Positions 16,912 to 45,449 are shown, counted from the stretch's first letter. The stretch is 64,000 nucleotides of DNA from a virus (IMGVR_UViG_3300027749_000034), one strand, 5' to 3'. A program made the numbers and translations. Notes: a model not told the origin generated them from the sequence alone.

Positions 16912-17235
16912 ATGACTTATGTAGTAACTGAAAGTTGCGTCAAATGCAAGTATACTGATTGTGTCGATGTATGCCCTGTTGATTGTTTTAAAGAAGGACC
17001 AAACTTTCTTGTCATTGATCCTGACGAATGTATTGACTGTGGTGTTTGTATTCCTGAATGTCCAGTAGATGCTATCGTTGCAGATCGAGATATGACAGAA
17101 GAACAAAAACCTTGGCTACCAATCAACATTGAACTTAGCAAAATTTGGCCAGTGATTAATAAAAGCAAGGCCCCACTTGATACTGCTGAAGAATTTAAAG
17201 ATGTCAAGGATAAAAAGGATTTGTTAGAGAGATGA
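16912..17235 (+). CDS. fdxA: 7Fe ferredoxin (Azotobacter FdI / FdxA type)
   Basis: [42 protein letters not shown]. Confidence 0.92.
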
Positions 17236-26082: not shown

Positions 26083-27180
26083 ATGGGAAATCAAGTAGAA
26101 ACCCGCACCGTTAAAATTAGCGAGTGCAAACCTATCCTGCGCCGAGCAGTACAAAAGCGTCGACCAGTCTTTGTCTGGGGCCCTCCGGGCGTAGGCAAAA
26201 GTGACATGGTAAACCAGGTTGCCGCAGAATGGCCCAATTCCGCAGTCGTGGACTTGCGTATGGCCCTAATGGATCCTACAGATATTAAGGGTGTCCCTTA
26301 TTATAGTGCAGGTGACAATACTATGAAGTGGGCTACCCCTTCAGAATTGCCTACCGAGGAATTTGCAAAAGAATACGACATTGTATTCTTGTTCTTGGAC
26401 GAGCTTAACTCTGCTCCTCCTGCTGTACAGGCCGCGGCCTATCAGCTTATCCTTAACCGCAAAGTTGGACAGTATAAACTGCCAGACAATGTTGTACTAA
26501 TTGCCGCAGGCAACCGAATGGGTGATAAAGGTGTCACCTATCGTATGCCTAGCCCACTGGCCAACCGCTTCATGCACTTGGAAATCCGTGTGGACTTTGA
26601 AGACTGGGAACAATGGGCCATCATGCATGAAGTCCATCCGCATGTGGTTGGCTTCTTGAAGCAGTTCAAAGGCGACTTATACAACTTTGATCCTACGCAA
26701 CACGACCGTGCCTTTGCTACTCCTCGTACATGGAGTTTTGTAAGCGACATGATTGATGACGACATGCCAGACAGCGCCAACACAGACATGGTATCTGGCC
26801 TAGTAGGTGAAGGTATGGCAATTAAGTTTATGAGCCATCGTAAACATGCCGCAGACTTGCCAGCGCCAGAAGATGTGCTGTCAGGCAAAGTTACCACTTT
26901 CAAGAGCAAAGAGGTAAGTGCCGCTTATGCAATGGTTACCAGCTTGAGCTACGAACTTCGTACACGATACGAATCCGGCAAGCGGAGCGGCAAGTTGGAC
27001 GAGTTCAACAAGAGTGCAGATAACTGGCTAGGTTTTATGATGAGTAACTTTGAACCAGAGATGGTTATCATGGGAGCTCATACTGTATTGAAGTCCTACA
27101 AGGTAGTGTTTGATCGTAAGAAGATGACCAACTTCCCCGAGTTCTTCAAACGCTATGCCAACTTACTCACAGACGAGTAA
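26083..27180 (+). CDS. MoxR-type AAA+ ATPase
   Basis: Walker A GPPGVGKS, Walker B LFLDELNSA, AAGNR, SPLANRF, ATPRTW. Confidence 0.9.
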   Translation: MGNQVETRTVKISECKPILRRAVQKRRPVFVWGPPGVGKSDMVNQVAAEWPNSAVVDLRMALMDPTDIKGVPYYSAGDNTMKWATPSELPTEEFAKEYDIVFLFLDELNSAPPAVQAAAYQLILNRKVGQYKLPDNVVLIAAGNRMGDKGVTYRMPSPLANRFMHLEIRVDFEDWEQWAIMHEVHPHVVGFLKQFKGDLYNFDPTQHDRAFATPRTWSFVSDMIDDDMPDSANTDMVSGLVGEGMAIKFMSHRKHAADLPAPEDVLSGKVTTFKSKEVSAAYAMVTSLSYELRTRYESGKRSGKLDEFNKSADNWLGFMMSNFEPEMVIMGAHTVLKSYKVVFDRKKMTNFPEFFKRYANLLTDE

Positions 27181-27211
27181 ACGACAAAGGAACTGGGCCG
27201 TACTTGAAATA

Positions 27212-27505
27212 ATGTACGGCTCAGAAGCCCGCCAAGTTTGGACGGATCAGCCCCCTACCCCATCTGATGTTAGCGAGTGGCTCCGCGAACAAAGGAAGAG
27301 TTGGTCCGTCCGACCTTACCCCAAAGGAGCCACAATTAATGAAGTTACCAGATGGGCCAGGGAACAGGGATTAAAGCGATTAGATTGGGACTTTGTACCA
27401 AAGCAATACGTCTGGTTTAGAGAACCACAAGTAGCAATGATTTGGGATATTTCAGGACCACAAAATAAAGTAGAAAAAACGGTTGACCTGAATCAGGATA
27501 CATAG
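27212..27505 (+). CDS. Hypothetical protein, possibly of the dispersed paralog family
   Basis: VTRWAREQG...WFREPQVAMIW; start uncertain. Confidence 0.45.
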   Translation: MYGSEARQVWTDQPPTPSDVSEWLREQRKSWSVRPYPKGATINEVTRWAREQGLKRLDWDFVPKQYVWFREPQVAMIWDISGPQNKVEKTVDLNQDT

Positions 27506-27511
27506 TATAAT
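27483..27511 (+). promoter_or_regulatory. Sigma70-type (early) promoter
   Basis: A-tract then TTGACC(27483-27488)-17 nt-TATAAT(27506-27511); CCTGA-A-TCAGG palindrome at 27487-27497. Confidence 0.8.
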
Positions 27512-27544
27512 ACATACATATACAAACAAGTTGGAGCCACCAAA

Positions 27545-28753
27545 ATGTCAAAGATGATTGCTAGAGACAAACTAATTAAGAGCCGTGTTGCTATGCTGTT
27601 AAAGTATCCGTTCTGGGGTCCTCTTGCGGCACGTCTTATTCTAGAAGAAGTTGAATGGTGCAATACTATTGCAACAGACGGTCGTAAATTTTACTACAAC
27701 AAGGCATTCGTTGACAAGCTCAGCGATGGTGAAATGATTTTTGGCTTTGGCCACGAACTTGGACATATCATCTTTGAGCACATGACACGCCGTGGCGACC
27801 GTGTGCCACAAATTTGGAACATGGCAGGTGACTATGTTATCAACAACATGCTGATCCGTGAAAGCGTTGGCACTCCAATTACAGCCGTTTCCATCTTGGC
27901 AGATCGCAAGTACGAAGGCAAAACTGCCGACGAAGTCTATGACGACTTGTTTGACAATGCTGTAAAAATTCAAGTTACCTTAGACGACCACTTGGACATG
28001 GAAGGTGATGGCGATGGCGAAGGCGAAGGTAACGGGCCTGGCAAAGACGGCAAAGGCAGGCCCAAGTTTAAGAAACTGTCAGAAGAAGAAAAGAAAGCCC
28101 TGCGCGATGAATGGCGTGAAGCTGTGATACAGGCCGCCAAGCAAGCAGGCGCAGGCAATACTCCTGCCGCTATCCAGCGTCTGGTTAAAGATGTTACTGC
28201 TCCTGTAATGGATTTGAAGGACTTGTTGCGTATTCAATTTAGTGGCTCTGTTAAAAGCGACTACACATGGATGCGTCCAAACCGCAAGGGCTGGCACACC
28301 GGTGCAGTATTGCCTGGACAATTACCTGGTGAAGAGCTTGACATTGTAGTGGCATTAGATGCATCTGGTTCCATTGATGAAGGCATGTTGATGGACTTCC
28401 TGGGCATGGTGCAAGGTAGCTTGGATCAGTTTACTTCTTACAAGGTACGGATAGTTACATTTGATACAGATGTATACCACGAAGATACATTTACCGGTGA
28501 TGACGGTCGTAGCATGGGTGAATATCAAGTTACCGGTGGCGGCGGAACAGACTTTGCTTGTGTATGGCAATGGATGAAAGATAACGATGTTAACCCGCAT
28601 CAACTTGTAATGTTCACAGACGGCTACCCGTTTGGCACTTGGGGCGACCCAGACTACTGCGACACGCTGTTTGTTGTACACGGAAGCAACGAAATTACAG
28701 CACCGTTTGGTATCACTGCCAATTATGTTCCACCAGGAAGAAAACGGAATTAA
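27545..28753 (+). CDS. DUF2201-like metallopeptidase + VWA domain protein (MoxR partner)
   Basis: IATDGR, HELGH (HExxH), AGDYVIN; MIDAS DASGS, GGGGTDF, FTDG. Confidence 0.88.
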   Translation: MSKMIARDKLIKSRVAMLLKYPFWGPLAARLILEEVEWCNTIATDGRKFYYNKAFVDKLSDGEMIFGFGHELGHIIFEHMTRRGDRVPQIWNMAGDYVINNMLIRESVGTPITAVSILADRKYEGKTADEVYDDLFDNAVKIQVTLDDHLDMEGDGDGEGEGNGPGKDGKGRPKFKKLSEEEKKALRDEWREAVIQAAKQAGAGNTPAAIQRLVKDVTAPVMDLKDLLRIQFSGSVKSDYTWMRPNRKGWHTGAVLPGQLPGEELDIVVALDASGSIDEGMLMDFLGMVQGSLDQFTSYKVRIVTFDTDVYHEDTFTGDDGRSMGEYQVTGGGGTDFACVWQWMKDNDVNPHQLVMFTDGYPFGTWGDPDYCDTLFVVHGSNEITAPFGITANYVPPGRKRN

Positions 28754-29802: not shown

Positions 29803-30102
29803 ATGAGTATTCGAAAGAAGGACAGAAGTTTTGAGAACATGCTTAAAGATATTCGTGTTGAAGAAGTTCCTGTTGAATACATAGATTGGATTAAAGTTTA
29901 TCTTAATGATGGCACAGAAATTATTTTTAAGAAAGAAGATTTGACCGATATTAAAACTAGCAAAGAAGTTTTAGCAATAAAACAACTTGAACAATACCTA
30001 GATCGTATTGTTGATTTTGAAGTAATGATGAATAGCGAGTTGATTAAATCTAGAGTAACTCGATTTGTTGGTGCATTACTGGCAACACATTTTGAGAGAT
30101 AA
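29803..30102 (+). CDS. Hypothetical protein
   Basis: GGAG RBS; 99 aa. Confidence 0.65.
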   Translation: MSIRKKDRSFENMLKDIRVEEVPVEYIDWIKVYLNDGTEIIFKKEDLTDIKTSKEVLAIKQLEQYLDRIVDFEVMMNSELIKSRVTRFVGALLATHFER

Positions 30103-30104
30103 AC

Positions 30105-30809
30105 ATGGACCTATTATTAGTAAACCCGCCTGATACTGCAATGAATTATATTTTTGCTCTCTTAGAGAAAGAAATTGATTTAACAGTTGTAGTAACGCAC
30201 AACCGTTTCAATGCCGAAATGCTGGATCGGAGTTTGATTAAAGTAATTGATCTAGAAACATCTATATGGGATAGCACAGAAGAGATTACATCTGCTATTT
30301 CTTGGAATCGACCCGGGCAGGATTTTTTAGATTCAATTGCTGGACAAATTGCATTGTCCAATTCAAAGGGATTACTGCAAGAACGACAGCGGCTACAAAT
30401 AGATCCAAAAATTCAGGTTGGTACATATATGCTTGATCTATTGTCGTACAAAGGTCGGCATGTACTTTGTAGTGTTATGATTCGACAAGAAGAAATATTC
30501 AGATTCCAAGAAGATCAAGATTCGGCAGAGTTTAAAAATAATGTAGAAACGGCTTTTCAAACAGTAGATGACGCTGGTATTATCAACGGGCCAAGTAGAG
30601 TGTTTATAACAGGCGACTTGGTTGCATTAAAACCATCATTGCCGGATCGTGCATTTTTAGAAAGAAAAGTTGCCAAGCGATTTCTTGATGTGTGGCCAAA
30701 TGTTATAAAATTTGAAAAAGACAACCCAAAGAAAGCACATCTTACATTTTATGATTGGGTAGAAAAGTACGGTAATGCAAAACGATATAGTTTAAATCTT
30801 ACTGGTTAA
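30105..30809 (+). CDS. Hypothetical protein
   Basis: 234 aa in-operon ORF. Confidence 0.6.
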   Translation: MDLLLVNPPDTAMNYIFALLEKEIDLTVVVTHNRFNAEMLDRSLIKVIDLETSIWDSTEEITSAISWNRPGQDFLDSIAGQIALSNSKGLLQERQRLQIDPKIQVGTYMLDLLSYKGRHVLCSVMIRQEEIFRFQEDQDSAEFKNNVETAFQTVDDAGIINGPSRVFITGDLVALKPSLPDRAFLERKVAKRFLDVWPNVIKFEKDNPKKAHLTFYDWVEKYGNAKRYSLNLTG

Positions 30810-31258
30810 GTTGGTTTATGGGACTTGAATAATAAGTCCCAAATTGGCAAAAACAATCCAAAGTTTGAATTAGTGTCATGATGGTGAATTAGATGCCATT
30901 TTCCACTGGTTAAAAATGGAGACCAATCAAACTGTTTATTGTGTTCAATTACCTCTTGTAACAATGCGGCCCAGAGATAATAAAATACACTTAGCCACCA
31001 ATAGCCAGTTATCCAAGAAAAGATTAGAGTTGGTATCACCTCAGTTATCCACAAATCTAATGTGCTCATCCATGTATCATTGAATAAGAACAAATTGTTC
31101 CAATGCCATGTTGTTTGTTTGTTTATATTAATATAACGATGGTGATCTGCATGTGCTGTAAATGCAAGTGGTGCAAATTTCAACCCAATTGAATGTATAG
31201 TCCGATGTATTACATACAGATATAAGGTCCAAGTCAAGAAAGAAAAAATGTATTCCAT
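30806..31258 (-). CDS. Fatty acid hydroxylase / sterol desaturase family membrane protein
   Basis: His boxes YVIHRTIH, HADHHR, HLIHH; NFGLFLPIWD.LF. Confidence 0.8.
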   Translation of the reverse strand: MEYIFSFLTWTLYLYVIHRTIHSIGLKFAPLAFTAHADHHRYININKQTTWHWNNLFLFNDTWMSTLDLWITEVIPTLIFSWITGYWWLSVFYYLWAALLQEVIEHNKQFDWSPFLTSGKWHLIHHHDTNSNFGLFLPIWDLLFKSHKPT

Positions 31259-31295
31259 GCTTTACTTATTAGAAAAACTGATAAGGGTATACTCC

Positions 31296-31303
31296 AATAA
31301 ATA
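31296..31303 (+). promoter_or_regulatory. T4-late-type promoter
   Basis: AATAAATA then 5 nt then ATG 31309; a divergent AATAAGTA box (31263-31270, - strand) lies 4 nt before the 31258 start. Confidence 0.55.
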
Positions 31304-31308
31304 TTCGG

Positions 31309-31839
31309 ATGGAATACTACAAAGAGATCAATCTTCCAAATTGGGAGAAAATTCAAAAATTTTGCCTGGAAAAGTGGACAGGTAAATTTACGCTTAGTCA
31401 AACTTTTCAAGGCGAACAATTGCGCTACATTGGAATGCTGTTGAAAAAAGACATCAAAGAAGTACTGGGCATTGATGTCAAAGTTAAAACAGCAATCATG
31501 TTTATAAATGAGCCTAGATTTGTACAAGATATGCATATCGACGGATTTCAAATTGATCGTGCAAATGCCAGTAATACTGCACTTAACTTGCCAATACTAA
31601 ATTGTGACACTGGACTAATGAAATGGTACAGTGGAGAGTTTTATCTTACTGAAAGCCCGCATAAATCTATCAAATATCTGAAAATTAACTGGACCACTGA
31701 GTCAAAGGTCGCTGTTGAAAAAATTATCAATCGGCCAACCATTGTTAAAATAAACATTCCACACCACATTGAAAATCAATGTGACCTGCCAAGATTGATG
31801 TTGAGTGTTCGCTTCACTGAAGACATCCTCATTGGCTAA
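31309..31839 (+). CDS. Fe(II)/2OG oxygenase-like (Asp/Asn beta-hydroxylase-like) protein
   Basis: MHIDG (HxD), PHHIEN, PRLMLSVRF. Confidence 0.6.
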   Translation: MEYYKEINLPNWEKIQKFCLEKWTGKFTLSQTFQGEQLRYIGMLLKKDIKEVLGIDVKVKTAIMFINEPRFVQDMHIDGFQIDRANASNTALNLPILNCDTGLMKWYSGEFYLTESPHKSIKYLKINWTTESKVAVEKIINRPTIVKINIPHHIENQCDLPRLMLSVRFTEDILIG

Positions 31840-31885
31840 TCCTCAGCGGATTATTGGCATACATAAATTATATTAGGAGATAGCT

Positions 31886-32506
31886 ATGCGTTGGGTTGCA
31901 CTTGCATGTACCGCCGAGAATGAAATACTCGCTTGGTCCAATGATTTATCAATTTTAGAAAGTGGATGCTCGGGAGAATTCCGAGCAATTTGCAGAATCT
32001 ACGGAGTTGATGATCAGTTTGTTAATCAGTTTGCCAAGGGAAATTTAAATTTTAGATTAAAGTTTGATGGCCCTAGAAACACCACCTGCGAACCATTTGA
32101 AAGAAACAATGAAGTGATAATGTTGAGTGCTGTACTGCAAGCCAGGGTGGGGCTAACAGCTGAACTTTATCAAAGACTGGCACATGGGTTTAAAAGATTT
32201 AGTCCAGTGGTTGAATGGCAACAAGATGCATACGAAGAAAAGTATCGTCAAGCTGTAGAAGTTGTCAATGGTAAAACTGAAAATATTGGCATGGTCAATG
32301 ACTATGCTGAAGAATCTGGACTTGCTATCAATATTGCCGCTGGCCTAATTGTAAACAAGTATCAGAATAGAAAATTTCTAATACGAAAACTCGAGCGGCT
32401 ACGCATGCGTCACCAAATTGCAATCCGCCAAGCCTCAAGTAAATTTGATCTAGCACAAGTTAGAGCCAATATGGAAGAAGATTCCTTTTTATCAATGATG
32501 ATGTGA
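31886..32506 (+). CDS. Hypothetical protein (helical C-terminus, tail-assembly-like)
   Basis: AGGAG RBS; QQDAYEEKYRQA...YAEESG. Confidence 0.6.
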   Translation: MRWVALACTAENEILAWSNDLSILESGCSGEFRAICRIYGVDDQFVNQFAKGNLNFRLKFDGPRNTTCEPFERNNEVIMLSAVLQARVGLTAELYQRLAHGFKRFSPVVEWQQDAYEEKYRQAVEVVNGKTENIGMVNDYAEESGLAINIAAGLIVNKYQNRKFLIRKLERLRMRHQIAIRQASSKFDLAQVRANMEEDSFLSMMM

Positions 32507-32507
32507 C

Positions 32508-33584
32508 ATGAAAAAATTACTATACTATATTCCACACAGAATTTATCGTGCCAATTCAATGCACGATGTAAACCCAGTTACAAAAGAATTTATTAAAATG
32601 TTCAATCCTTGGATTAGTCTAAGCGATAGAACAAATACTATTACAATACCCGGTGTAGAAATTTTTAATAACAGTCCTATTCCAGTTCTACCTGCGGTAG
32701 TTCCTTCATTCTCATCTGCCAGCTACAGTAGAATTGACGAATGTATTGCAATTGCAAATAGTCGTGGAGCAGAGAAGATTGTTGTTTTTTACTCAGGTGG
32801 TATCGATTCTACACTAATTGTATCTTTGTTAATCAGTCATCCAGATTGGAGTTCTCTCAAAGAGAAAATTTGGTTGGCAATCAATGAAGACAGTCAACTT
32901 GAAAATCCAAAATTCTTTGATGAGATTGTACTACCAAACTTTGGTACAAAGTTACTGCCCAGTAACAATTACTATGGAATTATCACTGATTCAAAGAATG
33001 TTTGCATTACTGGCGAATGTGCAGATAACTTGTTTGGTAGTCTGACGCTAAAAAGTTACATGGATAACACATTAAACTACAATGCAATACACGAACCCTG
33101 GGATGGAGAAACGGGCAGTTTAAATTGGTTGCTGGATAAAGTTAATTTATACAGGGATCAACGAGAGCAAATGCTGTATGACTTGGTCAATGCGGCGCCT
33201 GTTGATATTCGTAGTAACCATGATTTTCTGTGGTGGTTAAACTATACAATGAAGTGGCAAGCTGTCAAGTACCGCATGGCAATGCATGCTCCGACAGCAA
33301 CTGATGCAGAATACATTGCTGGTAATATTATCAACTTCTTTGATAGTCAATCTTATCAGGAATGGGCATTATACACCACTGAACAGAAGGTTGGTACTAC
33401 ATGGAATTCTTATAAGCTTCCGGCCAAGGCTTTGATCAATGATATCTGGGCCAATGCTGAATATCAAACATACAAAACCAAGTGGCCAAGCTTGCCAAGT
33501 ATCACTCGTTATAATAATGCTTGGGGATTTTTGTGGCAGAATGAAGATGGTTCGTTCACTGCCACAAAGGAATTAGACGACTAA
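32508..33584 (+). CDS. PP-loop ATP pyrophosphatase, asparagine synthetase C-terminal-like, no glutaminase domain
   Basis: VFYSGGIDST, ITGECADNLFG, K.PAK. Confidence 0.65.
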   Translation: MKKLLYYIPHRIYRANSMHDVNPVTKEFIKMFNPWISLSDRTNTITIPGVEIFNNSPIPVLPAVVPSFSSASYSRIDECIAIANSRGAEKIVVFYSGGIDSTLIVSLLISHPDWSSLKEKIWLAINEDSQLENPKFFDEIVLPNFGTKLLPSNNYYGIITDSKNVCITGECADNLFGSLTLKSYMDNTLNYNAIHEPWDGETGSLNWLLDKVNLYRDQREQMLYDLVNAAPVDIRSNHDFLWWLNYTMKWQAVKYRMAMHAPTATDAEYIAGNIINFFDSQSYQEWALYTTEQKVGTTWNSYKLPAKALINDIWANAEYQTYKTKWPSLPSITRYNNAWGFLWQNEDGSFTATKELDD

Positions 33585-34238
33585 GTCAGTGGCCATTGGG
33601 AAGATTTTAGCAATTACTTCGGCACATGCTCGTGCCACTTCCTGATGTTCCTTTTGTGTGCCATTTGCACTGCGTAGTTCAATAAAGTGAATCCAGCTAC
33701 GCAATGTTCCATTCATATACAAACGACTAACAGTCAAGCCCTCAGGTAAAACTGCTCGGGCTTGTTCTTTGGCAATGCCATTGGCAATGGCCCAATCATA
33801 TGCATTGGTGGCCGCGTCAATGACTGCCTGTTGTTTATCAAGCCAAACCATTTGTGTTTCGTGCTCTACTGAGTCGATACTGTTTTGTCTATTTTTGGGA
33901 TCTTGTAACCGTGCTTCTCTAAGTACGAATGACAAGTCTTTAGTAGGATCAGCATATCGTTGGCTGAACTCTTGGAAACTAAAACTTCTGTGTCGCAAGA
34001 TTTGACGGGCAATGTCTCTAGTGGTTGTGATTTCAATACAGGCACTGACCATTTCAAGTGGACTCCAGTGTGCGTGTTTGATAAGGTATCTAATAAGCTT
34101 TTCTGATGTGTCAGTGTTAAGCTGATTGGCAGGATTGGACACACGGGCGCAATACGCAATGAGTTCCTGTGCATCCGTGATGCCAAGATCTGCAAATTCT
34201 TTAGTTGGATTTGAGTAGCTGAGTAGTCGTACATTCAT
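33573..34238 (-). CDS. thyX: FAD-dependent thymidylate synthase
   Basis: CARVS, HWSPLE, RQILRHRSFSFQEFSQRY, ARAVLP, N..LRSW.HF. Confidence 0.95.
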   Translation of the reverse strand: MNVRLLSYSNPTKEFADLGITDAQELIAYCARVSNPANQLNTDTSEKLIRYLIKHAHWSPLEMVSACIEITTTRDIARQILRHRSFSFQEFSQRYADPTKDLSFVLREARLQDPKNRQNSIDSVEHETQMVWLDKQQAVIDAATNAYDWAIANGIAKEQARAVLPEGLTVSRLYMNGTLRSWIHFIELRSANGTQKEHQEVARACAEVIAKIFPMATDLVV

Positions 34239-35137
34239 GTAAGTTCCTTTTTATCAATTATAGCATCTTTTCTAATAGACCACAATCTTTTTATCTCACT
34301 TGGCGGAGCAAACGGCAATACTAATAACATGCAAGGATCAAATTCAACAGCTCTTCCGCTGACACTGGAACCAAAATCAAAACTACTTGCCTTTTTGTGA
34401 TGGTTGTTGTGCCAACCACTTCCCCAGTGGAAGTATCCAATCCACCATACATTGGTACTGGCATCTTTATTATCAAAGTTTCGATAGCCTGCGGCTGGAA
34501 CATGTCCAAATGTGTTGACCAGTCCATCTGCATGTAAGCTCATTAAGCTACCTATTACAAAAAACCAAACGGTAAAAGTAAGGCCAAACAGTAGCCAGCT
34601 TAATAATAGTGTAGCATAGATAATCTTGTTGTAATTTTCATGGATGAATGTAATTCGTTTATCTCTAAGCAAATCAACTGCATGTCTAAAGCTCACACTA
34701 TTTTGTGTGATGGCAAATTGCCAGCCCATGTAACTCCACCATTTGCCGTTGTCGACCGGGGTATGAATATCTTTACCAGGCTGATCACTTACGCGATGAT
34801 GATGACCACGATGTAGTGCAACCCACCATAGCGGACTGCCTTCGCCAACCATGGTTGCGGCCCACAATAACAACGGCTCTGCCCACTTGTATGGTGTCCA
34901 ACTTTTATGACTTAAAAATCGATGTAGTGTTAGATTGTTGCCAACACCATCCAGTAGTATCCAGCCGCAAATGGCTGTGACCGGCAACCACCATGACCAT
35001 GCTGTTGTTACAGCATACACAATTGCAATTATTGCCGCAAGGTGGTAAGGAAACCATATTGCTATGATATAAGGAATTTGGCCAGTTTTACTATACAGGG
35101 AGGCCTGGTTATCAAACCAATCTAATACTCTTCTCAT
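34235..35137 (-). CDS. Membrane acyl-lipid/acyl-CoA desaturase (delta-9 type)
   Basis: His boxes LHRFLSH, HRGHH, GWHNNHH; DIHTP; transmembrane segments. Confidence 0.88.
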   Translation of the reverse strand: MRRVLDWFDNQASLYSKTGQIPYIIAIWFPYHLAAIIAIVYAVTTAWSWWLPVTAICGWILLDGVGNNLTLHRFLSHKSWTPYKWAEPLLLWAATMVGEGSPLWWVALHRGHHHRVSDQPGKDIHTPVDNGKWWSYMGWQFAITQNSVSFRHAVDLLRDKRITFIHENYNKIIYATLLLSWLLFGLTFTVWFFVIGSLMSLHADGLVNTFGHVPAAGYRNFDNKDASTNVWWIGYFHWGSGWHNNHHKKASSFDFGSSVSGRAVEFDPCMLLVLPFAPPSEIKRLWSIRKDAIIDKKELT

Positions 35138-35776
35138 TTATTCTTTTTCTCTTCTAATTGCTTTACCACCTTCGCTCGGTGCTTCAGTATTTGGTCGTCG
35201 AAGTATATATCTTCTCAGGTCCATATCATGCGGATGTATTGTACTGCCCATTAAATCATGTATCAATGCGTATGGACTTCTTGATTTTGCAGGAACCATA
35301 CATTCTACAAATGTATAGTACCGTTCTCTAAAAGGAAGCATGATCTTACTGTAAGCCTCGCAACGACTTGCTGGATATGTAACAAAAAATTCATTTAGTC
35401 CAGCATTTTCATGTATAACACAAAGCTGTTCCATGATTTCTCTAAATGTTGGAATAAATCTCACTCCTACCCTAGGACTTAATAACCAACTGACAGACCA
35501 ACTTGGCATTACATTGTATCGACGTACTCCTACTGCGGCAATCCATTGACCATTTTCATCTTCTAATGCATACACTTGTCGTATGTTGAAATTTATAAAG
35601 CTACTGGGCCGTAAAAATGTCATAAAAAATTTACGAAACTTTATGTCGTCATCTATATCGTTTGAAATTTTAAAGTCTGGATATTTGTCTGGATCTGTAT
35701 TTTCGTAGATGTCTAAAGCAAATGTTACCAATTGCTCCAGGTGATCTAAGGTTAATGGTACTAAGCGACTTGACAT
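35138..35776 (-). CDS. Hypothetical protein, possible GNAT fold
   Basis: VYALEDENGQWIAAVGV...WSVSWLL beta pattern; tentative. Confidence 0.4.
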   Translation of the reverse strand: MSSRLVPLTLDHLEQLVTFALDIYENTDPDKYPDFKISNDIDDDIKFRKFFMTFLRPSSFINFNIRQVYALEDENGQWIAAVGVRRYNVMPSWSVSWLLSPRVGVRFIPTFREIMEQLCVIHENAGLNEFFVTYPASRCEAYSKIMLPFRERYYTFVECMVPAKSRSPYALIHDLMGSTIHPHDMDLRRYILRRPNTEAPSEGGKAIRREKE

Positions 35777-36714
35777 ATTGTTTGTATTCCGTTTATTAAA
35801 TTTTTCTCTAATGTGAGTGCAGGTACTTTATAAAACCTAGACTCAAATGTTAATCCATTGGACGATATGTTATAAAGTACTGCATCCCATAAATGATAAT
35901 AGTTTTCCATACCGTGCCATTTTGGTCTTGGTCTAAATTGATAGCCCAAGCTTGAGTAAATTTTCATCTTGCTAGATGTCCAGCCAAGCTTGCCTGGAAT
36001 TTGGTCTCTAATTAATTTTGCAACTGTTTCTTCTTGTAAAAATGCCAACATAGATTCTGGGCTATAAGTATAAAAATTATTCAAGGCTGGTATTCCAGTT
36101 TTGTCAACAAACCTGCGCCATACACCATCTTGATCTTCTTTCTTTAAAAAGCACCATTCAAATTTATAGGCGCCCGTTTCCCAGTTAATCTGCGGCACCT
36201 TTTCCAATTCTACTTCGTCAACAGTTATCATTGGTGCGGCAAATTGTTCAGCTACTTTTAATAAAATTTGTTGATAGAAACTGTAACTTTGATAACGATT
36301 GGCAATGTCATAACATTCGCCACTGTCAAAAAATGCTTGCGGATCAAAATCAATTATGTCGCATTTCAACCCCATTCTCTCAACCATTCCCAGCATAGGG
36401 CCAATGTCGTAGTTGTTGTTATTGTTTGCAAATTTAACTGTTGCCAATTTTGGTTGTATTCCAGCGGCTAAAAAACTGCGGAGGGCAATCTCACTATCTA
36501 ACCCACCACTCATAAAAATTGTCAAGTCTGGAAAATCTCTATACAAGCACCGAGCGTTTCTGATTAGTTCGGCTCGTAATGCCATAGGAGTACGAGTACA
36601 TCCGCCTACACTCATTGAGGTCGACTCTAGATCAGATGTACGCCAAACACTTGATTGGTCATTGTCATACCAATACTTTAAATGGTAATTTTCAGTGTTT
36701 CTAATAGAATTCAT
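35761..36714 (-). CDS. PP-loop (adenine nucleotide alpha hydrolase-like) protein
   Basis: TIFMSGGLDSE. Confidence 0.55.
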   Translation of the reverse strand: MNSIRNTENYHLKYWYDNDQSSVWRTSDLESTSMSVGGCTRTPMALRAELIRNARCLYRDFPDLTIFMSGGLDSEIALRSFLAAGIQPKLATVKFANNNNNYDIGPMLGMVERMGLKCDIIDFDPQAFFDSGECYDIANRYQSYSFYQQILLKVAEQFAAPMITVDEVELEKVPQINWETGAYKFEWCFLKKEDQDGVWRRFVDKTGIPALNNFYTYSPESMLAFLQEETVAKLIRDQIPGKLGWTSSKMKIYSSLGYQFRPRPKWHGMENYYHLWDAVLYNISSNGLTFESRFYKVPALTLEKNLINGIQTICQVA

Positions 36715-37352
36715 TATGCATTAAATGGCTCAGTTCTCACGCCAAACTTGTCTATCAAGTCATTGACTATTGGCTCAAGTTGGTCGTAAGCAACCAATGG
36801 TTTTATTACAGCCCATTGCGGTGTGTTATGTAATCTAATTTTATTATCCAGTGGAATACAATCATTCCACCAATCGCTCCAGATAGTACCAAGGGCGCGG
36901 CCTTGCCCTTTGGAAAATCGTACAATAATATCATAGATTGATTTGTTGTAATCATTGAATGTTAGTAACATTCCAAGTTTACCTCTGGACTCACACCATT
37001 CTAAATTACTAGACAACAAGTATTTGGAAACAGAATTGTCGCTCCTATATGGTGGTAGTACCCAACAGCGGTTGCCACCGGATCCCAATTGATCATGCAA
37101 TGGGCAGTCTTCAACTGCGCTTACACCAACGACACTTTCTACATCTTTGTCGTATAAGAAAGTAATCTGTCCATTATCTTTGGTCCATCTTTTCTTGTTT
37201 TTAACCAAGAATAAAAATCCGCTTGATGTACGATCTCCCATATTTTCCAGGGCAGGTGATTCAGTTTCTGCAATAGTTGAAAGGAACCCGTTGTACAAGG
37301 ATTCGTATTGTTCAAACTCAGTTGCGTTAGTATGGAATATAGATAGATTCAT
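36714..37352 (-). CDS. Possible GNAT-fold acyltransferase
   Basis: VVGVSAVE...NRCWVLPPYRS; tentative. Confidence 0.45.
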   Translation of the reverse strand: MNLSIFHTNATEFEQYESLYNGFLSTIAETESPALENMGDRTSSGFLFLVKNKKRWTKDNGQITFLYDKDVESVVGVSAVEDCPLHDQLGSGGNRCWVLPPYRSDNSVSKYLLSSNLEWCESRGKLGMLLTFNDYNKSIYDIIVRFSKGQGRALGTIWSDWWNDCIPLDNKIRLHNTPQWAVIKPLVAYDQLEPIVNDLIDKFGVRTEPFNA

Positions 37353-37367
37353 ATCTATATGTAGCTG

Positions 37368-37868
37368 TCAATCTATGTCGTTGTTTACCAAGCACATGAC
37401 AATATGTACTCTATCTTCCAAGCTTCCGTTTATTGCAGTATGTTCTTCTTTTGTGTTGACCCAATATATGCGGCCATCTGCTGGAATATGTAAAATTTCA
37501 GGGGGCCGAGTAAAAATAAATTTGGCTTGATTGTGTGTTTTGACAGCAATGTGCAGTCTGGGATTATCGTCTGTGTGTATACTATAACACACCCTGGCAG
37601 GCATAATCATAATTCTGGATCTGAATACAGGAATTGGAAGTGAACTAAAAAAGTCCTGCCACCAGGTGCCTGCAAGATCTGGATGTATCATATTCCATTG
37701 GCCTTCGCCTTCACCGGGCCTTGAACCTGTACTGGCATTCCAATCAGCGGATCCATTTGTTTGTAAAGACAATTGTCTTTGATCTGGATGTGCCGACATC
37801 AGCAGTTGTGTTTCTGCTTTTAGTCTTTCAAAGTCAATTACGCCGGGTATTTTGCTGATCCGTTGCAT
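37368..37868 (-). CDS. Asp/Asn beta-hydroxylase-like Fe(II)/2OG oxygenase
   Basis: RSRIM, YSIHTDD.PRLH, YWVNT...HTAIN....RVHIV. Confidence 0.7.
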   Translation of the reverse strand: MQRISKIPGVIDFERLKAETQLLMSAHPDQRQLSLQTNGSADWNASTGSRPGEGEGQWNMIHPDLAGTWWQDFFSSLPIPVFRSRIMIMPARVCYSIHTDDNPRLHIAVKTHNQAKFIFTRPPEILHIPADGRIYWVNTKEEHTAINGSLEDRVHIVMCLVNNDID

Positions 37869-39058
37869 TATAGTTTTCCAATGGCCATATATCTATTGCA
37901 CATGTACAGGTTTAACTCTCCTGCCCATAGAATAGTATTTAAGCCAGAGGATGCAACAAATTCTTCTAGGTTATTATGGCAGTTGACATGGTCAGGTACG
38001 TCAAACATGTCATTGCCTTGTAGCACTACTGTAGTTCCAGCCGGCAAGGACTTTATCCAATCGCCGTGATCTTTAAAATGCTCTACAATGGTGTCAATTA
38101 GCAACAGCTTTTTATATTTGGATAGTTGTAGTTCTCTTACATCTGTTCCTGAATTTTTAAAATTGTTGTGGAATCCAGAATTTAACTCTATTGCGGCAGA
38201 ATGTACAGATGTGTCAATGTCAATGTTGATAACTGAATCTAAATTTTGTCCCAGCATGTTAGATAAGAATGGTAACAATCCAACCCAACCGCCAACAACC
38301 AATGTTGAAGTTTCAACATCGCCCATCTTGCGTTTCTTTGGAATTAGATTTCTTTCTATTAGTTTTTCAACCAGCCAAATTTTACTTTTGACTTGATTTC
38401 GGCTCAGTGCATCTTTCCAGTTTAATTCCCTATCATTATTAATTGCAACAGCCAATCTTTTGATATGATCTCGTTGATTGTAATAGTATTCGTTTCCAAT
38501 GCAAACGCCTAATTTTTTTATATCTGTATCTACTACACAGGAAAGCAATGACTCTTTGCCAATTATCATCTCAACCAATTGAAAGAATTTGTCAAAGTCT
38601 TCTCTTGCATCAATTATCAATTGATGTGCCAGGGCCAACACAGGCAAGGCAGGTGTTTCAAATGCTTCAATGTTTAAGTTATTCCACTCATTGAGTGTCC
38701 ATAATTTATTGGCCATGCCCGTCAAGTCTGTTTCTATTAGATTGACCTTTAGGGGCGTTAACTTAATTGTTTTGCCATCAGTCCAGTCTGTTGGAACATA
38801 CAGTCCGGTTTCTATTGCCACTTGTAGTGCAATTAATCCTTGCTGGTCATCGCCTTCTCTTACTGCATTCAACAAAGGCCATAAATCAAATGCGTACTCT
38901 CTTCCAACTTCAACAATCAACTGTGTAAGCTCGTATTCGTCTTCAGTTTCAAGCCAACGATGAAAATGGTGTACACTTTTGCGAAATCCAATTGCTTCAT
39001 CAACAAAATAAAGCAATGCAGATCTTAGTTCTGTATTCTTATCCATTGAACCATCCAT
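37868..39058 (-). CDS. Two-domain protein with a C-terminal class I SAM-methyltransferase-like fold
   Basis: DALSRNQVKSK.WL, LVVGGWVG, INIDID, IDTIVEH, VVLQGN. Confidence 0.5.
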   Translation of the reverse strand: MDGSMDKNTELRSALLYFVDEAIGFRKSVHHFHRWLETEDEYELTQLIVEVGREYAFDLWPLLNAVREGDDQQGLIALQVAIETGLYVPTDWTDGKTIKLTPLKVNLIETDLTGMANKLWTLNEWNNLNIEAFETPALPVLALAHQLIIDAREDFDKFFQLVEMIIGKESLLSCVVDTDIKKLGVCIGNEYYYNQRDHIKRLAVAINNDRELNWKDALSRNQVKSKIWLVEKLIERNLIPKKRKMGDVETSTLVVGGWVGLLPFLSNMLGQNLDSVINIDIDTSVHSAAIELNSGFHNNFKNSGTDVRELQLSKYKKLLLIDTIVEHFKDHGDWIKSLPAGTTVVLQGNDMFDVPDHVNCHNNLEEFVASSGLNTILWAGELNLYMCNRYMAIGKL

Positions 39059-44738: not shown

Positions 44739-44996
44739 TTAGGCTACGCTGGCAATCGCAATTAATCCGGTAATAACAGCATTGAGCTTTTCTTTGAAAG
44801 CCAGTTGATTCATCTCTTGGATAATATCTAACTGTCTTTGCATATCACTTAGCACTTCACACAATTCTTCTTTGCTCAATTGCCCCATAAGGACCTGCTG
44901 AGTTTGTTGCTTGACTTGCTCTGCCGCGTTGGCAAATACTGGGTCTCCACAATTGGCAAGTTCTGCCAATGCTTGACTGATTTCATCTAAGTTCAT
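44739..44996 (-). CDS. Hypothetical small helical protein
   Basis: ATGA overlap with the upstream lipoprotein gene. Confidence 0.6.
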   Translation of the reverse strand: MNLDEISQALAELANCGDPVFANAAEQVKQQTQQVLMGQLSKEELCEVLSDMQRQLDIIQEMNQLAFKEKLNAVITGLIAIASVA

Positions 44997-45397
44997 CTTG
45001 GTCTATTTCCTAGTGTATGTTGAATAACTGTTGCGCTGTTTTCAATACTTTCAAACTTGATTTTACAAAATGCCACACTCACTGGACCATTTCCATAACG
45101 AAATGTCAATCCTTGTGCAATTTCATTCAAAGACTTTGATGCCTTGTAGCCATTTTCATTATGAGGAATATTCTCGCTGTATAACTCAAAAGTTCTGGTA
45201 TTGTTTGACAACTTAACTGCATTCTCTTTGCTAACCTGTGCATTATCACATTGTGATTTAAATTGCTGTGCTTCAGATCGAATTGTAGTAATTAAACCAT
45301 ATTCGGCTGAGTCAAACTTAGTCATTAAGTATGCATCAATTAGAGCGCAACCACTTAGCATACTCAAAGCTAAAAGCAAAACTGTTATTTTTTTCAT
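44993..45397 (-). CDS. Putative lipoprotein
   Basis: MKKITVLLLALSMLSGC signal peptide with lipobox LSGC. Confidence 0.7.
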   Translation of the reverse strand: MKKITVLLLALSMLSGCALIDAYLMTKFDSAEYGLITTIRSEAQQFKSQCDNAQVSKENAVKLSNNTRTFELYSENIPHNENGYKASKSLNEIAQGLTFRYGNGPVSVAFCKIKFESIENSATVIQHTLGNRPR

Positions 45398-45441: not shown

Positions 45442-45449
45442 TATTTATA
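45442..45449 (-). promoter_or_regulatory. T4-late-type promoter
   Basis: Exact TATAAATA on the - strand, upstream of the 45397 start. Confidence 0.65.

Follow-up and report, generated by a model that had tools for sequence, protein, structure and literature searches.

What does a phage gain from genes for membrane desaturases and hydroxylases, PP-loop ATP enzymes and acyltransferases placed side by side, and do these genes belong together at all? The question is raised by a 64,000-nucleotide stretch of DNA (IMGVR_UViG_3300027749_000034; the whole stretch is referred to in the following as the window) from an uncultured jumbo myophage, and in particular by the interval 30806–37868. An earlier note, made from the sequence alone, had described this interval as a cluster of eight tailoring-enzyme genes in pairs within 7 kb. 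The families that it named are present, although the interval holds ten open reading frames (ORFs), here called A–J, and two of them, the ThyX gene (E) and C, had gone unmentioned. Our analysis shows that the set is a genuine one, found widely among large aquatic phages, and that it is one conserved, horizontally mobile phage enzyme unit rather than a chance collection. We place about even confidence in the reading that the unit serves a single pathway at the host membrane, making or tailoring an acyl compound that is amide-linked, desaturated and hydroxylated.

Gene A lies on the minus strand and is followed by B, C and D on the plus strand, while J, I, H, G, F and E run on the minus strand and converge on D. 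Overlaps of 1 nt (I/H), 16 nt (H/G) and 4 nt (F/E) join the frames of the minus-strand series, in which G and F abut.

The full gene order was kept in 40+ close IMG/VR contigs, but since those genomes are colinear throughout, synteny among them is weak evidence alone. The decisive evidence for a functional unit is that distant relatives keep the set in other genome contexts. The core I-H-G-F, with C-D, A, oxygenases of the B/J type and the C-terminal domain of K, the gene next to J, recurs in at least seven divergent lineages at 25–45% identity and in differing surroundings. The possibility, raised in the earlier note, that the genes would be independently scattered in relatives is thus not borne out: the set travels together in many divergent phage lineages.

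In one such locus (L057), where H is 39% and the module 30–45% identical, one strand holds I-H-G-F-C-D, a 98-aa gene and A, and the other a J homolog matching PF05118 and a homolog of the K C-terminus; thyX is missing from this block, which is bordered by terminase and tail-sheath genes. In a more distant locus (L058, H 30% identical), I-H-G-F is found beside ribonucleotide reductase genes, with an Asp_Arg_Hydrox gene, a cupin, a D homolog and a TauD gene nearby. A third (L065) carries two B-like genes, I, H, G, F, a further B-like gene, D, a PhyH gene and two more desaturases, together with genes for a methyltransferase, another 2-oxoglutarate (2OG) oxygenase and two GT1 proteins. In four loci (L070–L073), H and I occur with between one and three desaturases and with differing selections of A, G and B/J, and in L062 a Pfam-positive GNAT precedes a distant H relative at the position of I, with an SDR gene and a J homolog after the H relative.

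Three of these contigs (L070, L071 and L072) are low-GC and were binned into metagenome-assembled genomes (MAGs). L070 and L071 (JANWKP01...) are binned as a 'Nitrososphaerales archaeon' MAG, yet carry genes of the phage clade, and L073 (PBPT01000016.1, 335 kb), from a 'Neomarinimicrobiota' MAG, contains the VWA gene of the phage clade (E 7.5e-117), u197, K, a glycosyltransferase gene and the module. L070, L071 and L073 are probably jumbo-phage DNA that was mis-binned. A reduced version of the module is present in the cultured Pelagibacter phage Mosig EXVC030M (MT647606), in which an F-type desaturase (3.6e-33), an I-type GNAT (2.4e-18), Asp_Arg_Hydrox, TauD and methylase genes lie beside tail-fibre genes; no H or D homolog was detected in that region, and its record lists nothing but domain names, with no pathway put forward. 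A desaturase from 'Acinetobacter phage MD-2021a' (L077, CAKLQH020000002.1) was dropped, as the surrounding trpB/trpC, btuB and baeSR genes indicated bacterial-looking DNA.

At the core of the module is H (35761–36714, minus strand), a 317-aa stand-alone PP-loop ATP enzyme of the asparagine-synthetase type. A second enzyme of this type, also without a glutaminase domain, is the 358-aa product of D (32508–33584, plus strand). Both belong to the PP-loop ATP pyrophosphatase (AANH) superfamily with a PF00733-type synthetase domain. D carries the motif SGGIDS and matched PF00733 at 22.1 bits, just above the cut-off of 21; its family comprises 670 proteins, many with PF00733, and it accompanies the module in L057, L058 and L065. 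H had no Pfam match, but its SGGLDSE is invariant in the family, and the SGGIDS of D and SGGLDS of H are each invariant across their respective families. The AlphaFold model of H (predicted local distance difference test score, pLDDT, 92) contains the PP-loop (AANH) fold, and its neighbors in the AlphaFold DB cluster are stand-alone 'asparagine synthetase domain' proteins of 323–329 aa, with a template modeling (TM) score of 0.65. The structure resembles AsnB, beta-lactam synthetase, carbapenam synthetase and TsnB9. The SGG motifs, the PF00733 match of D and the model and cluster neighbors of H together indicate that both are AsnB-type synthetase domains without a glutaminase. When a GATase family was sought in H, D and their upstream genes I and C, none matched, so that neither enzyme classes as AsnB proper. 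A complex prediction for H with I scored 0.00 and carries no weight either way.

The upstream partner of D, gene C (31886–32506, plus strand), encodes 206 aa and matched no Pfam family. The C-D pair is conserved in L057 (E 9e-88) and in a bacterial-looking contig, L066 (E 5e-10). Close to the C-terminus of H, three or four residues from the end, a cysteine (C314) is kept in ≈90% of the family, including some relatives at 24–28% identity; it could be catalytic, e.g., as a thioester or persulfide carrier. In Pseudomonas phage Cygsa01 (L075, 11421–13570), two neighboring genes with a small ORF between them match the D and H profiles (D profile E 1e-10 to 2e-13). They adjoin baseplate genes and are annotated 'tRNA-specific 2-thiouridylase MnmA', a label that is probably an over-annotated PP-loop match.

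H is flanked by two genes for 212-aa GNAT proteins, I upstream (36714–37352) and G downstream (35138–35776), both on the minus strand. Neither protein itself had a Pfam match. A profile search with I gave 150 representative clusters, and 19 of 80 I homologs matched PF00583 (best E 6e-9); language-model (Atlas) features of I compared with GNAT clusters scored 0.94–0.97. By this homology I is predicted to be a GNAT-family acyltransferase, while G has the GNAT fold, and the element order of that fold (b1-a1-a2-b2-b3-b4-a3-b5-a4-b6-b7) was found. At the position of the acyl-CoA pyrophosphate motif after b4, G has P-x-x-G-x-R/K-F and I has Y-R-x-x-N-x-V/I-S/T, both degenerate compared with Q/R-x-x-G-x-G/A.

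After G, in all lineages examined, comes F (34235–35137, minus strand), which encodes a 300-aa membrane fatty-acid desaturase (PF00487 FA_desaturase, E 3e-15). Residues H72, H77, H109, H113, H114, N208, H212, H243, H246 and H247 show no variation across 13 sequences drawn from four lineages. This ligand set, three His boxes plus an NxxxH element, is the SCD/DesC-type pattern, and hydrophobic hairpins are found at 21–51 and 172–201. On these residues F is assigned to the SCD/DesC-type desaturases, with delta-9 regiospecificity as a prediction only; for cyanophage desaturases of this type, delta-9 activity on lipids has been proven (PMC5776448). The second membrane di-iron enzyme is the 150-aa product of A (30806–31258, minus strand), a member of the fatty-acid hydroxylase superfamily (PF04116 FA_hydroxylase, E 2e-12, 48 bits against a cut-off of 31). 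Nine histidines (H18, H22, H36, H39, H40, H106, H122, H125 and H126) are invariant in 11 orthologs, including those from distant loci, and A accompanies the module in L057, L070 and L071. About 14 kb upstream, the window encodes a 107-aa ferredoxin (16912–17235; Fer4 + DUF3470) that might donate electrons to F and A.

J (37368–37868, minus strand, 166 aa) was assigned by its similarity to Cpz10 (PDB 7V4F), which it matched by phmmer over residues 11–158 (E 4e-26; A5 profile, 1.6e-37). Its residues H98/D100/H143, R153, H106 and H155 align with H115/D117/H160, R170, H123 and H172 of Cpz10, and its orthologs in L057 and L058 match PF05118 (best 2.6e-10). By these matches, J is classed as an Fe(II)/2OG oxygenase of the Cpz10/AspH-like family, with a predicted beta-hydroxylase activity. 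Cpz10 is a characterized alpha-ketoglutarate/Fe(II) beta-hydroxylase of an aminoacyl moiety in caprazamycin biosynthesis (PMC9814697). The 176-aa product of B (31309–31839, plus strand) is a probable Fe(II)/2OG oxygenase and the weakest of our assignments. H76, D78 and H152 do not vary, R162 is almost invariant, and these residues fall in register with J proteins of the Cpz10 type; there was no Pfam or PDB sequence match, the hhalign probability was <1%, and an Atlas lead to 2OG-FeII_Oxy_3/Asp_Arg_Hydrox (0.88–0.89) was sub-threshold. In L065 and L071, genes resembling B adjoin the module. A simple hydropathy scan found no hydrophobic segment in J or B, and Cpz10, to which J is closest among characterized proteins, is soluble; hydroxylases of the LpxO/OlsC type have a PF05118 domain with membrane anchoring and act on acyl chains of lipid A or ornithine lipids.

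Beyond J, K (37868–39058, minus strand) encodes 396 aa, of which only the C-terminal ≈180 residues co-travel with J in distant loci: positions 211–393 of its hidden Markov model match L057 (5e-28) and L073 (1e-30). Neither K as a whole nor this domain matched Pfam or PDB. By eye, a GxGxG-like motif followed by an acidic strand end is seen in the C-terminal part, which suggests, as an unverified assignment, a Rossmann or SAM-methyltransferase domain. PDB sequence searches with profiles or sequences of G, I, B and K gave nothing usable, Pfam searches with the K C-terminal domain, C, u234 and small ORFs near the distant loci gave nothing, and PHROGs and NCBIfam scans recognized only ThyX and the desaturase.

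Most of the assignments in the earlier note therefore stand. Both membrane di-iron enzymes were confirmed, with His-box ligands that are invariant across lineages, as were both PP-loop enzymes and both GNAT-like proteins, G by its fold and I by homology; for the two oxygenases, the claim is good for J and weaker for B, for which there is an HxD...H...R pattern and the sub-threshold lead. The pairs are not, however, products of duplication. BLASTP and hhalign related nothing within them beyond the PP-loop motif, and a 'duplicated triad' was rejected for lack of paralogy between pair members.

What might such a set of enzymes do? In enzymes of the AsnB class, such as AsnB, beta-lactam synthetase, carbapenam synthetase and TsnB9, a carboxylate is activated by adenylation and then handed on to a nitrogen nucleophile, which gives an amide. 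GNATs take acyl groups from thioesters of CoA or of carrier proteins and place them on amines. Hydrophobic chains in membranes are the substrates of SCD-type desaturases and FA_hydroxylase enzymes, and the Cpz10/AspH type of enzyme introduces beta-hydroxyl groups at aminoacyl or acyl carbons. We propose a pathway with the GNAT I, the AsnB-type H, the second GNAT G and the desaturase F as its core, accompanied by C-D, A, J, the C-terminal domain of K and probably B. H and D would spend ATP on adenylating a carboxylate, which would then be joined to nitrogen in an amide bond; as they have no glutaminase domain, the nitrogen would come from a substrate amine or from free ammonia. I and G would transfer acyl groups from CoA or a carrier protein, and F, A, J and B would carry out O2-dependent desaturation and hydroxylation of the acyl or aminoacyl parts. 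At the infected cell's membrane this would yield a lipid-like, amide-linked compound that is unsaturated or hydroxylated and that is either built from scratch or obtained by tailoring a host aminolipid. As regards substrates, step order and product, the scheme is what we infer from the families, folds and co-travelling described above.

The choice of acyl donor is informed by a fusion protein, P0381, from ENA contigs, in which a carrier-protein-like domain with a DSL motif is attached to the C-terminus of an I-type GNAT; its PP-binding match (E 5.5e-3) is below the Pfam threshold. Directly downstream of the fusion lie a desaturase gene, a 323-aa gene and then TauD and Asp_Arg_Hydrox genes. A GNAT joined to a carrier domain favors acyl-thioester donors. 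The earlier note had proposed a lipid/amide metabolite, remodeling of the host envelope or acylation of virion proteins. The co-travelling and the carrier-fused GNAT beside a desaturase favor an acyl/amide pathway, but the evidence does not separate a new metabolite from host-lipid remodeling or virion acylation.

Several observations weigh against a lipid or amide pathway. No scaffold enzyme (FAAL, PKS, NRPS, Spt or OlsA-type) is present, and this clade has no dedicated carrier protein; a regular-expression search for an acyl carrier protein (ACP)-like DSL motif in or near the module gave no plausible candidate, and the PP-binding match of the fusion is itself sub-threshold. No relative of I or G matched PF13444, the OlsB/N-acyl amino acid synthase family; the 80 members of the I family gave matches only to PF00583, PF13508 and PF13673. 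The module is split here over two convergent transcription units with thyX in between. Finally, the H family is not lipid-bound everywhere. In high-GC Alphaproteobacteria MAGs (L067–L069), H-like genes occur in tandem with no desaturase or GNAT detected nearby, among housekeeping genes (M17 aminopeptidase, MFS, homocysteine S-methyltransferase, SpoU methylase and OmpA) that make the context uninformative; from these tandem genes it follows that the H family has a role in cells as well, apart from the phage module. In L060/L061 (Logan SRR29476917/33), moreover, translational coupling joins an H relative (29% identity) to a gene of the PqqD family.

In a more self-contained form of the pathway, the AsnB-type PP-loop enzymes would take the acyl-activating role of an ANL ligase, working with the GNATs and sometimes a carrier protein. 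The product, desaturated and hydroxylated, would then belong to a new class of amide-linked lipid, lipo-amino acid or signaling or antibiotic-like molecule that alters the envelope of the infected cell or its neighbors. We regard this as possible, if rather doubtful.

The PqqD neighbor bears on another explanation, in which the enzymes modify a small peptide or a virion (tail) protein: AsnB-type enzymes would form side-chain amides or macrolactams, AspH-type enzymes would hydroxylate Asp/Asn, and the GNATs would acylate lysines or the N-terminus. Lasso cyclases belong to the AsnB-type enzymes, and PqqD is of the peptide-binding type. Near the coupled genes of L060/L061 are an ABC exporter and a lysine-rich ORF of 40 aa, along with a GT1 gene, a 2OG oxygenase and an Orn/Arg decarboxylase-like gene; this may be a RiPP-like (ribosomally synthesized and post-translationally modified peptide) or polyamine-related cluster. 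The module moreover has tail, sheath or fibre genes as neighbors in the window, in L057 and in phage Mosig. However, no PqqD, protease or conserved small precursor ORF is found in the window, L057, L058 or L065, and for a lasso-peptide cyclase in particular, neither PqqD nor a transglutaminase-type protease occurred among the window genes scanned, PqqD appearing only beside the distant L060 relative. The partners that are always present, membrane desaturases and hydroxylases, have hydrophobic chains as substrates, the carrier-domain fusion indicates acyl-thioester chemistry, and the nearest characterized relative of J has a small-molecule substrate. We consider a peptide or protein target unlikely.

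The surroundings of the interval suggest glycan tailoring instead. As the earlier note correctly stated, glycosyltransferase and tail genes are close by: the module borders on a series of glycosyltransferase-like genes, after which come those for tail and baseplate. The window also encodes nucleotide-sugar enzymes (epimerase/dehydratase, UDP-glucose dehydrogenase, cytidylyltransferase and mannose-6-P isomerase). The GNATs would then N-acetylate amino sugars, the PP-loop enzymes would produce acetamidino or amide groups in the manner of PseA/WbpG-type amidotransferases, and the small cupins would modify sugars, the glycan being placed on virion proteins or DNA. The GT1 genes after the module in L065 fit this picture, but in L057 and L058 the module has no neighboring glycosyltransferases, neither D nor H matched the N-acetyl-sugar amidotransferase models of NCBIfam and Pfam, the structure of H is clearly of the AsnB class, and a sugar pathway leaves the obligatory membrane desaturase unexplained. 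This makes a role in glycan synthesis very improbable.

There might also be no common pathway, the interval being a hyperplastic accessory region where unrelated auxiliary metabolic genes (for the desaturase, AspH-type hydroxylases, GNATs and ThyX) pile up at the junction of two transcription units. This would account for the presence of genes on both strands, for pair members that are unrelated in sequence, and for E (33573–34238, minus strand), a thymidylate synthase gene (PF02511, 2e-45; TIGR02170, 8e-48) wedged between F and the convergent D in the middle of the cluster. Desaturases and Asp/Asn beta-hydroxylases are also known to occur singly as auxiliary genes in cyano- and pelagimyophages (PMC5776448; PMC7029224). 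Nevertheless, thyX is missing from the distant module copies in L057, L058 and L065, which makes it a passenger, and the order I-H-G-F and its overlapping frames are kept while thyX is lost. With the same set present at 25–45% identity in lineages whose surroundings differ, we find an accidental accumulation hard to credit. In the L035/L037 clade, thyX is replaced by a different, 293-aa ThyX-like gene that is only 30% identical.

Least probable of all, and only marginally credible, is nucleic-acid or tRNA modification tied to thyX and the 7-deazaguanine system, with PP-loop enzymes as in TilS/TtcA/MnmA, GNATs as in TmcA/Mom and 2OG enzymes as in AlkB/JBP: MnmA and TtcA do rank first for H in Foldseek against Swiss-Prot (TM only 0.25–0.30), the single, weak tblastn match that D had in deposited phages bears the annotation MnmA, and the cluster, with thyX inside it, is 15–25 kb from a DpdA/FolE operon, but the AlphaFold DB cluster neighbors of H are asparagine-synthetase-domain proteins, J matches a small-molecule hydroxylase, no nucleic-acid role is known for membrane di-iron enzymes, and thyX does not co-travel.

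Each of these alternatives is thus weakened by the obligatory membrane desaturase, by the AsnB-class structure of H or by the co-travelling of the genes, and we continue to favor a pathway that makes or tailors an amide-linked acyl compound.

As to expression, several of the genes had been described as lying behind late-type promoter boxes. We found no perfect TATAAATA in 30806–37868 and no enrichment of near-matches; in the window, one-mismatch matches to TATAAATA numbered 90 against 95.7 expected, and the claim of T4-type late boxes at these genes fails. The sole perfect minus-strand TATAAATA, a T4-type late box, is at 45442–45449. It lies just upstream of a gene with a lipoprotein signal (44993–45397) and heads a 15-gene co-directional run (45397→33573) that takes in the glycosyltransferase-like genes and J to E. 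The layout suggests that this run is co-transcribed.

The family-B DNA polymerase of the phage is 46–48% identical to the counterparts in Sinorhizobium phage Phosso and Agrobacterium phage Atu_ph07. The region 30806–37868 had no DNA-level match to deposited phages by megablast, and H had none by tblastn. The stretch is contained in freshwater metagenome runs, with strong matches in three, two of which are possible sources; RNA sequencing runs contain only 6–7% of its words. Elsewhere in the window are the FolE/deazaguanine-type operon, the ferredoxin gene and a CobS-like AAA ATPase (AAA_5) with a VWA protein. The AAA ATPase and its DUF2201/VWA metallopeptidase-like partner (26083–28753) are 79–99% conserved, and u99 (29803–30102), encoding 99 aa, has 77–99% identity clade-wide, far above the conservation of its neighbors.

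If the proposed pathway is correct, phages operate an entire pathway for a lipid or small molecule while they infect. Phage lipid auxiliary genes have so far been single genes, such as the cyanophage delta-9 desaturases, and a multi-enzyme module would differ from these. The earlier note knew of no such set in phages, and literature searches likewise gave no description of the combined module, yielding only single-gene reports of phage desaturases and Asp/Asn hydroxylases. The pairing of an AsnB-type synthetase with GNATs and a membrane desaturase has no characterized precedent. The identity of the product would give a function to the large orphan phage families H, G, I, B and C, and might yield new amide-forming biochemistry and a new route by which phages alter host membranes in lakes and oceans.

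To our knowledge, no known pathway combines these parts, but individual members can be compared with characterized enzymes. Unlike AsnB, beta-lactam synthetase, carbapenam synthetase and TsnB9, H and D lack the N-terminal Ntn glutaminase-like domain, and the solved enzymes of this class are only 8–13% identical to them in sequence. H is also paired with GNATs and D with the 206-aa C, unlike the AsnB-class enzymes. J is closer to its reference, Cpz10 (7V4F/7V4M/7V4N; PMC9814697), of which it keeps the facial triad, the 2OG-binding Arg and two second-site His residues at a similar size (166 aa compared with 182 aa). Cpz10, however, belongs to a Streptomyces liponucleoside cluster, and the other cpz-type genes (GlyU-forming enzymes, a ribosyltransferase and kinases) are absent beside J. 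F shares PF00487, the three His boxes, the NxxxH element and two hydrophobic hairpins with the cyanophage desaturase vFAD, cyanobacterial DesC and animal SCD1, and like vFAD it is phage-encoded. While vFADs have been described as single auxiliary genes (PMC5776448), F is translationally coupled to GNAT and AsnB-type genes. Some module lineages, again unlike the single-gene vFADs, hold two or three desaturase copies.

At the level of whole pathways, we compared the module with two systems. The ornithine-lipid pathway consists of the N-acyltransferase OlsB, the AspH-type hydroxylases OlsC/LpxO and the FA_hydroxylase-type hydroxylase OlsE. It shares three superfamilies with the module, namely a GNAT-fold N-acyltransferase and hydroxylases of the PF05118 type and of PF04116, as well as amide-linked acyl chemistry. 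The module differs in having no PF13444 match and no OlsA-type O-acyltransferase, and in that J and B show no hydrophobic segment for a membrane anchor in a simple hydropathy scan; conversely, it has an AsnB-type enzyme and a desaturase, neither of which occurs in Ols pathways. JamABC and the bacterial polyyne cassettes combine an acyl-activating ligase, a dedicated ACP and membrane desaturases. They resemble the module in having an ATP-dependent activator of carboxylates, a carrier domain, found in some module lineages, and membrane desaturases, of which the module has one to three in a row. Neither a thioesterase nor an ACP is present in this clade, and where those cassettes use an ANL-type ligase, the putative activator of the module is of the PP-loop/AsnB type and is joined by GNATs and 2OG hydroxylases.

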